Sequence record: MK327931.1
Source: Escherichia phage vB_EcoM_G17
Reading direction: 5' to 3' (one strand)
Length of the DNA stretch: 64,000 nucleotides
The translations under genes were made by a program, and so were the position numbers. The notes beneath the pieces are model-generated. The model saw nothing but the letters and a program-made list of their open reading frames with translations, made no database searches and was not told where the DNA came from. Of this stretch, positions 33,265-63,902 are shown one piece after another (the stretch's first letter is position 1; every line of letters starts with the position of its first letter).

Positions 33265-33322
33265 GTATATTGGTACATTAACTATTATATCATATTTTTA
33301 TAAGTTGTCCCACTTATAAAAG

Positions 33323-59847: not shown

Positions 59848-60432
59848 TTATTTTGTAATGTTTAGTTTAGAAACGAAGTATTCTTTGGCTTCTTCATATG
59901 TCATTGAAGTATACATAGGATTCCATTTATCGTCAATATCGATAAGTACTTTAACTTCCATTACATCTTCTGGTGTATAGAATTGCCATGTATTGTGATC
60001 TGGCTCATAGTTAGGGTCCAGTACAAAAACCGTACCATCCTGACCATAAACTTCTCCATCCTCTAATAGCTCACGGAAGAAATCTTCTCCAGTAGTTGGG
60101 TCTTCGTATGCATTATAAAAACGAAAAACAACATTCTCAACATCTGTTCGGGTAGTACCATCGTCTTCATCATATTCCACCAAACGGTCCTGATGAAATA
60201 CTAGGTCAATTGCACCAATGCGAGGTTTATTATGTGGAGTTTTGATTTCTTGCTGGGAATTGTAATCAATACGTTCAGTACTGATGAATACTCCACTAGG
60301 GGTAATTTCAATACCAGACACATTTTCTGGTGAATAGTAAGCGTCACACATGTCATCAATGTGCATGTGCTCATGATACACTTCCATTTCAGGATTCTGC
60401 AACAACAGTGCTGCTAAGTCTTTTGCTTTCAA
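59848..60432 (-). CDS. Hypothetical protein (194 aa), paralog of 61168-61815
   Basis: N-terminus MKAKDLAALLLQNPEMEVYH...TPSGVF versus MKSHELAKLLLSQPNLEIYH...TPSGIF; C-terminal Y.EA motif shared. Confidence 0.55.
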   Translation of the reverse strand: MKAKDLAALLLQNPEMEVYHEHMHIDDMCDAYYSPENVSGIEITPSGVFISTERIDYNSQQEIKTPHNKPRIGAIDLVFHQDRLVEYDEDDGTTRTDVENVVFRFYNAYEDPTTGEDFFRELLEDGEVYGQDGTVFVLDPNYEPDHNTWQFYTPEDVMEVKVLIDIDDKWNPMYTSMTYEEAKEYFVSKLNITK

Positions 60433-61167: not shown

Positions 61168-61815
61168 TTATTTTTCAATTTTATCAATCATAGAAGGTGA
61201 TACTTTAACATTGAATTCAGAATCAGGAAAATCTTTAGAAAATGATTCATTTTGTTCTTGTGAAAGTTCTTTTTTCGGTGGAAATAACATTTTGGCTAAA
61301 TTTTTACCACATTCAATTGCTTCATCATATGACATATTTTCCCATGTTTCATGCCAAGTATTAGGATCATATTCTGTCAGTACTGAAATGAAATCAATAT
61401 CATCAGATGTATAACAAACAGCATGTTGATTAGAGAATTGTGTTGATTTATTTTTACCTAATAAAACAATTGGCTTTTCATAAGGAATGTTAAATACCAA
61501 CCCATATTCTAAGCTAAGAACAGTTTGAATATGTGAACCCTCCAATTTTGGAGTAATAGTACCATCCTTAAAGAAAATTTGCACATGACCCAAGAGGGGG
61601 GTTTCGTATGGTGTAAGTACATTTTCAGAAACTGATGTAGGTTTTACCGTTGTGAAAATACCAGATGGTGTAACCATTAATCTATTATCAAAATTCTGAT
61701 AATGCAAGTCACTCTCTGCATCATAATGATAAATTTCTAGATTTGGTTGAGATAGTAGTAATTTTGCTAACTCATGCGATTTCATATTATTTCTCCAAAA
61801 GAAAAGGAGAGTCAT
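61168..61815 (-). CDS. Hypothetical protein (215 aa), paralog of 59848-60432
   Basis: See paralog entry; AAGGAGAG SD. Confidence 0.55.
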   Translation of the reverse strand: MTLLFFWRNNMKSHELAKLLLSQPNLEIYHYDAESDLHYQNFDNRLMVTPSGIFTTVKPTSVSENVLTPYETPLLGHVQIFFKDGTITPKLEGSHIQTVLSLEYGLVFNIPYEKPIVLLGKNKSTQFSNQHAVCYTSDDIDFISVLTEYDPNTWHETWENMSYDEAIECGKNLAKMLFPPKKELSQEQNESFSKDFPDSEFNVKVSPSMIDKIEK

Positions 61816-62306: not shown

Positions 62307-62735
62307 TTAGTTAATAATAAAGGTAATTTCAGGATTCATTTCCGAAACTGCATTGCGTTTACTTCTATCCCATAGTATTCTGTTATTATACAAAGAAGAA
62401 TCACATACTACAAGTAAGCAATTTCTTAATCTACTTACAGTACTTTGATTATTTAAATCAGTTTCTGAAATAAAAAATACATTTTCAGGAACTACTAAAG
62501 GAATAGATTTATCAAAAAACAAAACTACAATAGGTCTTGTTGTATGAACTGATTTAACGAAATCCAAAATACTATTATAAAAATTAGTTTCTTTAGTAAT
62601 TACTGACGGATCTTTAATTCTTTTCAAATATTGCTGTGGTAATTGATGTTCGTCTTTTATCTGAAACTCAAAATATTCTTTGAATAACATTTGTGTTAAT
62701 TCGGATTTATCGGATATTTTCGTTGTGTTACTCAT
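62307..62735 (-). CDS. Hypothetical protein (142 aa)
   Basis: ORF. Confidence 0.5.
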   Translation of the reverse strand: MSNTTKISDKSELTQMLFKEYFEFQIKDEHQLPQQYLKRIKDPSVITKETNFYNSILDFVKSVHTTRPIVVLFFDKSIPLVVPENVFFISETDLNNQSTVSRLRNCLLVVCDSSLYNNRILWDRSKRNAVSEMNPEITFIIN

Positions 62736-63425
62736 TCACTTCGTTCTCTCGTAACTCAAGAAGTCACTGCGTTTACTTCGTAAACTAGTTCCTTCTGAAA
62801 ATGATAATGTACTTTAAAAACTTGACGGGATTTGTTGAGGACTATTACATCCCCCCGCAGGGGAATGAAGGTAATAAAAAAGAGACAATTAAGTCTCTCT
62901 TGACGATGATGGCATCGGATATTATCGAATTGCGAATTTCTCAAATTTTGGACGGATCTTTCTTGTACCAAAATTTAGAGAGCGAAAGCGGGTTGCTCGG
63001 TTTCTCTCTATCGCAGTCATATGCAACGGTCGCTGGTCTTTTCATCAACAGCACTCAGTACTAACTCTATTCGATCAAAGTAGTACTTGTTCTCAAATTT
63101 TGGACGCAACTTTCTTGTAAAAATTGCGTCCGCTATTCTTGAACTCCCTTAGCAAATCTGGTAAGGTGCGAACCTTATACATCTATCTAGGAACTCTCTG
63201 TATGCTTATCGGAGTTCTTTATACAGCCGTGTCGCCGTGATTCGTGGTCTTACATCGTGTTTGTTTGAATGCCAGTACTCTAACAGGTTTCTTCTGCTGT
63301 TCGCTACAACGGTAAAGCTCATCTATCCTTTACATTTTCAAGAGAAGTAGGTTCTCAGTGTCCATTTTTCAATGTCCGTTGTCATTTTCTATATACATTA
63401 TATCATTGGAACATATAATGTCCCA
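62736..63425. other. ORF-free structured region with duplicated 30-nt motif; candidate ncRNA or regulatory region
   Basis: About 690 bp without a convincing ORF; visibly more G+C than the flanks; 17+10-nt direct repeat TTCTCAAATTTTGGACG-nnn-CTTTCTTGTA at 62938-62970 and 63089-63120; perfect hairpins including CCCC-CGCA-GGGG (62851), AGAGAC-AATTAA-GTCTCT (62881), GGACGCAA/TTGCGTCC (63102-63131) and TAAGGT-GCGA-ACCTTA (63160). Confidence 0.3.
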
Positions 63426-63902
63426 TTACATGTATACTTTTTTTAAATCCTTAGAACAACGATCAAAAATTGTGTTTATGAATTCAACATCTTCGATAAT
63501 ATTCGAATCGTTAGCAACATTTTCATTTCTTGTCGTGTTCCTATATGTGTGTTCAGGATGATTGTATACCACCTTGACTACATTATTTAGGTCTATAAAA
63601 TTTGACGTTTTTTGCGTATAGGAAGCCTGAAGCTTGATGAGTTTACCATCATTCTCAAGATTGGTTTTATGAATTAGTTCTTCAATGCCAGTTAAATGGC
63701 TATAGCTATCTTTTTCTTTTACAAAAGTAATAGTAACAAGAACTGCTTTCTCATCTCCCATATCGGAAATGTTTTTTACAGCACTGATAATTTCTAAGTT
63801 TGAAAAATCTAATTCTTTAAGCATTTTACAAATATTTCCACAAAGTTCGATAAGTGATAATTTCTTCTCTGGTAACAGAAACTTCATTGCACTTAACACC
63901 AT
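63426..63902 (-). CDS. Hypothetical protein (158 aa); start uncertain
   Basis: ORF; an overlapping 54-codon ORF in another frame begins at about 63987, so the true start and upstream context are unclear. Confidence 0.45.
   Translation of the reverse strand: MVLSAMKFLLPEKKLSLIELCGNICKMLKELDFSNLEIISAVKNISDMGDEKAVLVTITFVKEKDSYSHLTGIEELIHKTNLENDGKLIKLQASYTQKTSNFIDLNNVVKVVYNHPEHTYRNTTRNENVANDSNIIEDVEFINTIFDRCSKDLKKVYM

Follow-up and report, generated by a model that had tools for sequence, protein, structure and literature searches.

A multi-copy family of large, pseudoknotted RNAs in jumbo phages of Enterobacteriaceae, with copies in prophages and in a bacterial island

Large, intricately folded RNAs of bacteria and phages are rare, with about a dozen classes known, and nearly every class that has been solved is a ribozyme, the core of a ribonucleoprotein or, recently, an RNA-only cage. 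Here, a stretch of 64,000 nucleotides from Escherichia phage vB_EcoM_G17 (sequence record MK327931.1), called the window throughout, was analyzed around a gap of 690 bp between two genes, at positions 62736-63425. The gap holds one member of an RNA family that is new, being previously undescribed and matching no known RNA family.

The closest described systems are ROOL and GOLLD, which are, like the RNA presented here, large (>500 nt), multiply pseudoknotted, encoded by phages or prophages, devoid of a known protein partner and of unknown function. Their loop-to-junction pairings were first seen as covariation and then proved to be intermolecular bridges of RNA-only cages; helix A of the present RNA, described below, is a loop-junction pairing of the same type. 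In kind, this RNA stands with them, as a large phage and prophage RNA with many covarying helices and pseudoknots and with no associated protein gene. It differs in that neither sequence nor structure matches, in that it does not lie beside tRNA genes, and in its occurrence in Enterobacteriaceae jumbo phages as 4-5 diverged copies per genome. Several pseudoknots in series are also a likeness to transfer-messenger RNA (tmRNA).

Another point of comparison is the pRNA of phage phi29, a single-copy, structured phage RNA particle of ~120-174 nt that belongs to the packaging motor. Its loops pair between molecules, and this pairing covaries among related phages, a precedent for reading helix A, with its paralogue-specific sequences, as an assembly code. 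The two RNAs are not homologous, and a packaging role would leave the copies in prophage lysogeny regions and in the island unexplained. T4 oriF and oriG and ColE1 RNA II each consist of a promoter and a transcript of a few hundred nucleotides, with several such sites in T4 and a structured RNA II of ~550 nt; the element in the window differs in being GC-rich, terminated, constrained by a complex fold and found in non-replicative contexts.

That jumbo phages express large non-coding RNAs is known from PA5oct, a distant relative of the clade, in which four 'putative lncRNAs' (long non-coding RNAs) of 236-619 nt, ncRNA001-004, are supported by RNA-seq, two of them among the most abundant phage transcripts (PMC7318152). 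These differ in having no described structure or family, and homology was rejected, since neither nhmmer nor covariance model R1 (built for the conserved domain of the present family) finds anything at the four loci. A 2023 survey of viral structured RNAs contains only motifs of 29-151 nt, and full-text literature searches returned no published description of this RNA.

Rfam 15, run over the whole window at gathering score, gave no match (ROOL, GOLLD, OLE, HEARO, introns, RNase P, tmRNA, 6S, riboswitches and ribozymes included). In the gap, E-values up to 10 brought up only noise from eukaryotic small nucleolar RNAs and microRNAs, and E-values up to 1 applied to the GAP32, Munch, RaK2 and Citrobacter copies gave no recurrent match inside the element. 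An identity as group I or II intron, RNase P, 6S, ROOL or GOLLD was rejected, no Rfam match being found in five divergent members. A group I intron was further rejected because each flanking open reading frame (ORF) is complete, having a start and a stop of its own, and the two are unrelated, because the neighbours vary among copies and because no intron model matches. ARAGORN found 0 tRNA or tmRNA genes in the window. The element carries GACGGGAUUUG, an 11-nt identity to the tmRNA 5′ region. A tmRNA was rejected because this identity lies on the non-transcribed strand, past the terminator, because ARAGORN and Rfam are negative, and because there is no tRNA-like domain or tag frame.

A conserved fold with three pseudoknots

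IMG/VR, metagenomes and GTDB genomes were scanned for patterns and then searched with a profile, which yielded 57 full-length copies of the element; the 35 that are non-redundant at 97% identity form the alignment used below. In this alignment, near-invariant blocks separate helices whose sequence changes while complementarity persists. The helices come from a covariation scan of all column pairs, followed by curation and then by pair counts set against shuffles and against partners slid along the alignment. In the alignment as given (54 pairs, 35 copies), standard pairs fill 94.3% of cells versus 77.0% in shuffles, 41 of 54 pairs have changed on both sides (24.4 expected), and the covariation score is 0.49, versus 0.05-0.08 with partners slid by 1-3 columns, controls that are 28-46% paired. 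With the full pair set, 0/500 shuffles match any of the observed values. When the 3′ domain is realigned in the minus sense, 93.3% of cells are paired (76.8% in shuffles) and 31/37 pairs have changed on both sides, again with 0/500 shuffles as good. The existence of a conserved fold is secure.

The fold has two domains, at least 13 helices, three pseudoknots and a nearly invariant core. In pseudoknot 1, helix Y (63223-63227/63296-63300), which is 100% paired with 4/5 pairs changed on both sides, crosses helix X (63179-63182/63229-63232). Pseudoknot 2 is helix A, formed between the loop of hairpin F (63069-63075) and a junction strand (62924-62930) that is 140 nt away. In pseudoknot 3, helix D (62992-62996/63023-63027) crosses helix B (62931-62935/63011-63015), and some 35 invariant positions are concentrated in and around this D/B pseudoknot. 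Counted in the minus sense, the paired fractions are 99.6% for helix A, 100% for B and D, 97.6% for C and 94.9% for E; in hairpin H, 7/8 pairs have changed on both sides. Stems drawn up sequence by sequence show at least 8 complementary versions of helix A and at least 10 of helix F, and in genomes with at least two recovered copies the helix-A sequence always differs between them. Covariance model R1 matches the window at 62921-63091 with 159.5 bits. The features are listed here in the minus sense, from promoter to tail.

63397-63424, minus strand: predicted promoter (consensus scan), with a -35-like GGGACA at 63424-63419, a 17-nt spacer and an extended -10 TGATATAAT at 63405-63397
63356-63390, minus strand: variable leader between the predicted start and the conserved core
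63179-63350, minus strand: 5′ domain (all-pairs covariation scan, pair counts)
63323-63330/63340-63350 and 63303-63305/63316-63318, minus strand: two hairpins of the 5′ domain (covariation scan, coordinates)
63189-63197/63211-63219, minus strand: hairpin H of the 5′ domain, with the variable arm of that domain at 63233-63295
63162-63166/63173-63177, minus strand: small hairpin TAAGG/CCTTA in the region 63144-63178 (alignment)
63144-63152, minus strand: invariant CTCCCTTAG block, reading CUAAGGGAG in the minus sense (alignments)
63089-63144, minus strand: optional peripheral arm 2, made of repeat copy 2 (63090-63119) and the perfect hairpin GGACGCAA/TTGCGTCC (63102-63131)
62920-63087, minus strand: 3′ domain, the most conserved part, with a near-invariant core at 62983-63030 (per-sequence stems, pair counts, covariance model)
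63057-63066/63079-63087, minus strand: hairpin F of the 3′ domain
63031-63034/63050-63053, minus strand: hairpin E of the 3′ domain
62938-62942/62978-62982, minus strand: hairpin C, bearing optional arm 1 (62943-62976) with repeat copy 1 (62938-62967)
62904-62917, minus strand: small hairpin CGATG/CATCG just upstream of the terminator (alignment helix)
62874-62898, minus strand: predicted intrinsic terminator T1, a hairpin at 62898-62881 followed by UUUUUUAU (62880-62873)
62822-62871, minus strand: conserved segment past T1, with the hairpin TTCAT-CC-CCCC-GCA-GGGG-A-ATGAA (62845-62871) and TTGACGGGATTTG (62822-62834)
62723-62785, minus strand: tail hairpins GTTTAC-TTC-GTAAAC (62771-62785) and GTTAC...GTAAC (62723-62757), with stems that differ between copies and stay complementary

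The small hairpin at 63162-63177 changes from TAAG/CTTA to TGAG/CTCA in other copies, as seen in the alignment and not formally counted. The 30-nt repeat is the shared 5′ half (in plus sense) of the two optional arms, one within hairpin C and the other after hairpin F; many lineages have this module at one of the two sites or at both, and others lack it. The local pairings that surround the repeat are not the same for its two copies; this points to a recognition motif and not to a simple stem.

The gap is bounded exactly by the minus-strand ORFs 62307-62735 and 63426-63902. An earlier note, made from the letters of the window alone, had described it as an ORF-free and GC-shifted region with a duplicated 30-nt motif and several perfect stem-loops, into which no tRNA cloverleaf could be fitted. 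This description holds. Only short, overlapping ORFs of 30-87 aa lie within the gap, none is conserved in the 35 copies, and the longest ORF per copy ranges from 44 to 130 aa on either strand. A protein-coding gene or pseudogene was rejected, since no reading frame is conserved and indels do not come in multiples of three (832 alignment gap runs not divisible by three versus 57 divisible). The GC shift is real but modest, with a GC fraction of 0.396 in the gap and 0.413 in the core, versus 0.25-0.31 in the immediate flanks and 0.348 in the whole window, and 7% of 690-nt windows are equally or more GC-rich. The two copies of the repeat (62938-62967 and 63090-63119) are 28/30 identical and 152 nt apart, far beyond chance. 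Three perfect stem-loops were confirmed: AGAGAC/GTCTCT (62881-62898), which is terminator T1, CCCC/GGGG within 62845-62871, and GGACGCAA/TTGCGTCC. The absence of a tRNA agrees with ARAGORN. Of the checks that the note had proposed, ARAGORN and Rfam turned out negative in the window and comparative alignment positive, the region being conserved and covarying across related phages.

The suggestion of one or more structured non-coding RNAs is strongly supported by conservation and covariation, with the correction that there is one large RNA and not several small ones. The hairpin with a GCGA loop of GNRA type that was singled out (GAATT-GCGA-AATTT, 62927-62939) exists in the sequence but is not a feature of the fold, because its bases form the covarying helices A and B, because it is not conserved as a hairpin in other copies and because it lies on the non-transcribed strand. 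The idea of repeated operators is not supported, the repeat being a module of two optional RNA arms that is absent from many copies. Terminal inverted repeats, as in a miniature inverted-repeat transposable element, were rejected as well: the inverted pairs are not colinear and resemble AT-rich chance matches.

Copies in jumbo phages, prophages and a bacterial island

Escherichia phage SHEFM2K matches the window with 100% identity and PBECO4 (Asteriusvirus, Rak2-like jumbo phages) with 99.6%; judged by these values, the window comes from a jumbo coliphage of the PBECO4/121Q type (Rak2-like). Conservation is higher in the gap than in the genes on either side, with 95.8% identity in the fEgEco12 group versus 90.5% for the larger stretch, and 86% identity in Turkey5 versus 77% for the surrounding genes. 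From GAP32, CBB, fHe-Yen9-04, BF, Erwinia phages, Munch and RaK2, a DNA search recovers only the non-coding core, which in these other genera again occupies gaps of 600-900 nt that carry no annotation and in some cases have other neighbours. Full-length copies are present in all related genomes and contigs.

The complete PBECO4 genome carries three further copies, at ~94, ~195 and ~305 kb, all of one orientation and all in unannotated gaps. For the PBECO4 genome and the window taken together, covariance model R1 returns exactly four copies. The family numbers 4 copies per Asteriusvirus genome and four to five per genome across the jumbo-phage group. Paralogues are mutually 63-77% identical. 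In a distance tree of all copies the four of Asteriusvirus cluster together, though two of them are syntenic with copies of other genera, a conflict that suggests gene conversion between dispersed copies. The label 'ancient paralogues' was dropped on account of this grouping, recent duplication or gene conversion being equally possible.

Neighbourhoods vary. The element is co-directional with its neighbours in 3/4 phage copies and also in the island and the prophage described below. The PBECO4 copy at ~305 kb is convergent with baseplate genes on the plus strand, and no sense gene follows it. No association with tRNA islands is seen in PBECO4: none of the six tRNAs of the genome lies in the window, the tRNA cluster (L007 18.7-23.0 kb) is ~12 kb from the nearest copy (5.9-6.3 kb), and the other three copies have no tRNAs nearby. 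In PBECO4 (L007 5891-6346) and in the distant RaK2 (L029 1373-1826), a copy lies immediately 3′ of a gene for a sigma-70-like RNA polymerase sigma factor, a synteny of one copy that is conserved across genera. A weak covariance-model match in PBECO4 at ~231.8 kb (L007 42697-42846; 20.8 bits, E-value 0.014) overlaps the end of a 3′-5′ exoribonuclease gene and is probably due to chance. Two other unannotated gaps of this genome, at 151711-153706 (2.0 kb; L006 12559-14555) and 156818-157841 (1.0 kb; L006 17666-18690), are without a copy of the RNA and, by ARAGORN, without a tRNA; they may be further non-coding features.

The family extends beyond jumbo phages. Two matches in bacterial genome records are true members. 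In Citrobacter amalonaticus P55 (NZ_JBALIF010000001.1; L085 3440-4260), similarity to jumbo phages is limited to a cassette of promoter and RNA (~660 nt), carried by a prophage inserted beside hofB/ppdD-like genes. The order in this prophage is large serine recombinase, RNA, a 165-aa ORF (orf165) and a CI-type repressor, a module shared by a metagenome contig. In a metagenome-assembled genome of Enterobacteriaceae, the RNA lies between the chromosomal thiD/thiM and a CI-type repressor. The copies at L081 6466-7030 and L066 2530-3089 likewise belong to the bacterial set. Among 5,426 complete E. coli genomes, 2 carry the RNA, with nothing annotated there. The copy of E. coli LR-29-1 (NZ_AP027515.1 3478971-3479553; L090 7001-7583) belongs to a 10-kb island adjoining ffs that also contains an integrase remnant, IS3, a resolvase and PDC-M45, a candidate defence system in PADLOC. 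None of the bacterial sites is annotated, and no plasmid copies were found. The bacterial copies in the distance tree fall inside a single clade of Mimasvirus-type copies, and this position within jumbo-phage diversity suggests capture from jumbo phages.

The cassette stands alone: neighbours differ between copies, and nothing else is common to jumbo phages and the Citrobacter prophage. The idea of an accompanying protein partner was rejected: orf165 has no homologue in the phage genome, and the genes flanking the element in the window encode a DUF7325 protein and a protein without a family.

Predicted promoter, terminator and transcribed strand

The predicted promoter points leftwards into the element, and its spacing places the start site near 63390. 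A -35-like hexamer, a spacer of 16-18 nt and TGnTATAAT are the parts of a sigma-70-type promoter, an assignment that is a match to consensus only. The same layout is found at the same relative place, on the minus strand ~45-85 nt to the right of the copies, in essentially all 33 copies examined, including the one flanked by plus-strand genes; its variants are TGGGACA, TGAAAC or TGGAAC, 16-18 nt, and TGnTATAAT or TATAAT. GGGACA-N17-TGATATAAT recurs at 33284-33311 and 52297-52324, each time directly upstream of a minus-strand ORF, so that the window has 3 such sites versus 0.16 expected, and it has 18 extended -10 boxes versus 7.6 expected, 14 of them on the minus strand. In CBB and GAP32, a 'divergent RpoD-like' promoter class with the motif TGAAACG has been described, located in CBB mostly upstream of DNA-synthesis genes (PMC5259590). 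The promoters of the window appear to be the Asteriusvirus version of this class.

Downstream of the promoter, the variable leader contains in other lineages a small hairpin, often capped by GAAA in the minus sense (...GGAGGC-GAAA-GCCUAC..., GGUAC-GAAA-GUACU, CAAGGA-nnn-UCCUUG). At the other end, T1 has the anatomy of an intrinsic (Rho-independent) terminator, a stem-loop directly followed by a U-run on the strand presumed to be transcribed. A hairpin with U-run occurs at this position in 29/35 copies (30 counting a weaker one), with stems that differ and stay complementary. Between these signals, the main product is predicted to run from ~63390 to ~62874 and to measure ~517 nt.

Transcription from the minus strand is very probable because promoter, terminator, GAAA/GNA loops, wobble positions and orientation of the neighbours all indicate it. 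The loops of leader and tail hairpins are of GAAA or GNA type in the minus sense. Wobble pairs in the inner part of F and in the closing pair of E work only in that sense (F 11-28, GU 12; F 14-25, UG 31; closing pair of E, UG 27 and CG 4). Thermodynamic z-scores of -3.85 (minus) and -2.68 (plus) do not discriminate between the strands. A call for the plus strand made from G.U counts (RNAalifold) was reversed on the basis of promoter, terminator and loops, since it was driven by invariant terminal positions.

Conservation does not stop at T1. The columns of 62822-62871 are invariant or near-invariant in all 35 copies, those without T1 included, and the all-pairs scan reveals no covariation linking them to the core. 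This segment could belong to a read-through isoform, pair with GAUGAG close to the 5′ end as a closing helix, or act as a DNA-level signal. In the second tail hairpin, the loop, which overlaps the start codon of the following gene, contains GAACGAAGUGA in the minus sense (62736-62746); this loop motif was ruled out as a genome-wide signal, having a single occurrence in the 64-kb window.

Proposed role, rival explanations and neighbouring genes

The reading that we favour, with somewhat better than even confidence, takes the gap to be an entire gene, in cassette form, whose product is a stand-alone structured RNA acting in trans in phage-host conflict. The phage promoter (63424-63397) would drive minus-strand transcription of an RNA of ~517 nt ending at 62898-62874, which would fold into its two domains around the near-invariant core. 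Host RNA polymerase would make it, in the early or middle phase of jumbo-phage infection and, in lysogens, constitutively, because an extended -10 needs no phage factor and because the same promoter serves prophages. The RNA would then accumulate as a stable folded particle and act in trans, most likely not as a leader for its neighbours, and would probably bind or sequester a factor of the host or of a rival phage. Oligomers might form through the loop-to-junction pairing of helix A, by analogy with ROOL and GOLLD. Of this picture, the analysis shows the make-up of the cassette, the complex conserved fold, the presence of several diverged copies in a phage genome and the spread of the cassette alone to lysogeny modules and a defence island. 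That copies are multiple and diverged, and that prophages and the island have captured the RNA, points to a weapon or shield at the RNA level, a role with few precedents. The family is unusually tractable, given culturable phages of E. coli, Salmonella, Klebsiella, Erwinia and Yersinia, one E. coli and one Citrobacter strain, clear ends, and natural variation sufficient to define three pseudoknots.

A bolder version is offered tentatively, at well below an even chance. It would make the RNA an RNA-only machine, either a homo-oligomer in which helix A is a paralogue-specific code for four or five distinct particles, or a new ribozyme, used early in phage-host or phage-phage conflict and captured by prophages and by the island, perhaps as a decoy.

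Several points weigh against the favoured reading. T1 is absent in 5/35 copies, and ~100 nt past T1 are conserved like the core; taken together, these two facts suggest that the 3′ end may lie further on or that there are two isoforms. Covariation cannot pick the strand, internal one-sided changes giving 17 G.U versus 21 A.C cells, and two conserved G.U positions, the terminal pair of helix X and the second of hairpin H, fit the plus strand better. The literature searches found no transcript data for this phage group, so expression, ends and abundance are inferred, and the role in conflict is argued from genomic context only.

One rival reading is a cis-acting leader or attenuator, in which the structured domain senses a ligand, a protein or temperature and sets read-through of T1 into the genes downstream. 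Promoter, structured domain, hairpin with U-run and co-directional next gene make up a riboswitch-like anatomy, the five copies without T1 would read through, and conserved sequence runs past T1 to the start of the next gene. We nevertheless regard a leader as improbable, since the downstream genes are unrelated, differ with copy and context and encode hypothetical proteins, where a riboswitch would have related genes downstream; since the ~305-kb copy of PBECO4 has no sense gene to control; and since the stems of T1 vary freely and the all-pairs scan shows no alternative pairing with the core that is conserved. Moreover, ~450 nt with three pseudoknots far exceed known sensing domains.

Equally improbable is a functional plus-strand RNA, antisense to the neighbours, with the minus-strand promoter making a regulatory antisense transcript or simply driving downstream genes. 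Some wobble pairs work in the plus sense only, namely G.U at the end of helix X (31/35) and at the second pair of hairpin H (32/35) and U.G at the end of helix C (10/35), and the 5′ motif of such an RNA, TTGACGGGATTTG, resembles the tmRNA 5′ region, a likeness that is not a test. As many wobble positions, however, work only in the minus sense; no conserved promoter lies upstream on the plus strand, conservation extends past what would be the 3′ hairpin in plus sense, and the GNRA/GNA loops indicate the minus strand along with promoter, terminator and neighbour orientation, ARAGORN finding no tmRNA.

A catalytic RNA, self-processing or otherwise, is rated lower still. Large RNAs of such complexity are often catalytic, ~35 invariant positions cluster in and around the D/B pseudoknot, and the interleaved strand order of X/Y and D/B is group-I-like, of P3/P7 type. 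That resemblance is one of topology only, no ribozyme or intron of Rfam matches in five divergent members, even at E-values up to 10, and the element interrupts no gene, its flanking ORFs being complete and unrelated.

Least probable is a replication origin at which a persistent hybrid of the transcript primes DNA synthesis, the 4-5 copies being multiple origins: dispersed copies in a single orientation, a promoter class that in CBB mostly precedes DNA-synthesis genes, the several promoter-dependent origins of T4-like phages and the structured ~550-nt primer precursor of ColE1 are in its favour, but the region is GC-richer than its surroundings where an origin would have an AT-rich unwinding element, selection acts on RNA-type pairing over the whole length (13 helices and 3 pseudoknots), the transcript stops at a predicted terminator, cumulative GC skew has no inflection at the element, and a site between integrase and cI in a prophage or in a 10-kb island is implausible for a phage-type origin, so that the replication or packaging site contemplated in the earlier note is unlikely.

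Returning to the genes around the RNA, the upstream neighbour (63426-63902, minus strand), directly upstream of the promoter, encodes a DUF7325 protein (E-value 1e-54), and the downstream neighbour (62307-62735) matches no Pfam family. The records of SHEFM2K, BAU.Micro_ELP-22, JP4, WPEC3, 121Q (gene 516) and A4 (A4_511) place 1-4 'hypothetical protein' genes within the gap; the family does not conserve these ORFs, which are probably false calls on top of an RNA gene. In every public genome of these jumbo phages, which are candidates for therapy, the loci are either blank or filled with such apparently spurious 'hypothetical proteins'. Further along the window, the minus-strand ORFs 59848-60432 and 61168-61815 have clearly related starts (…LLLQNPEMEVYHEH… and …LLLSQPNLEIYHYD…) and, on this likeness, look like diverged tandem paralogues.

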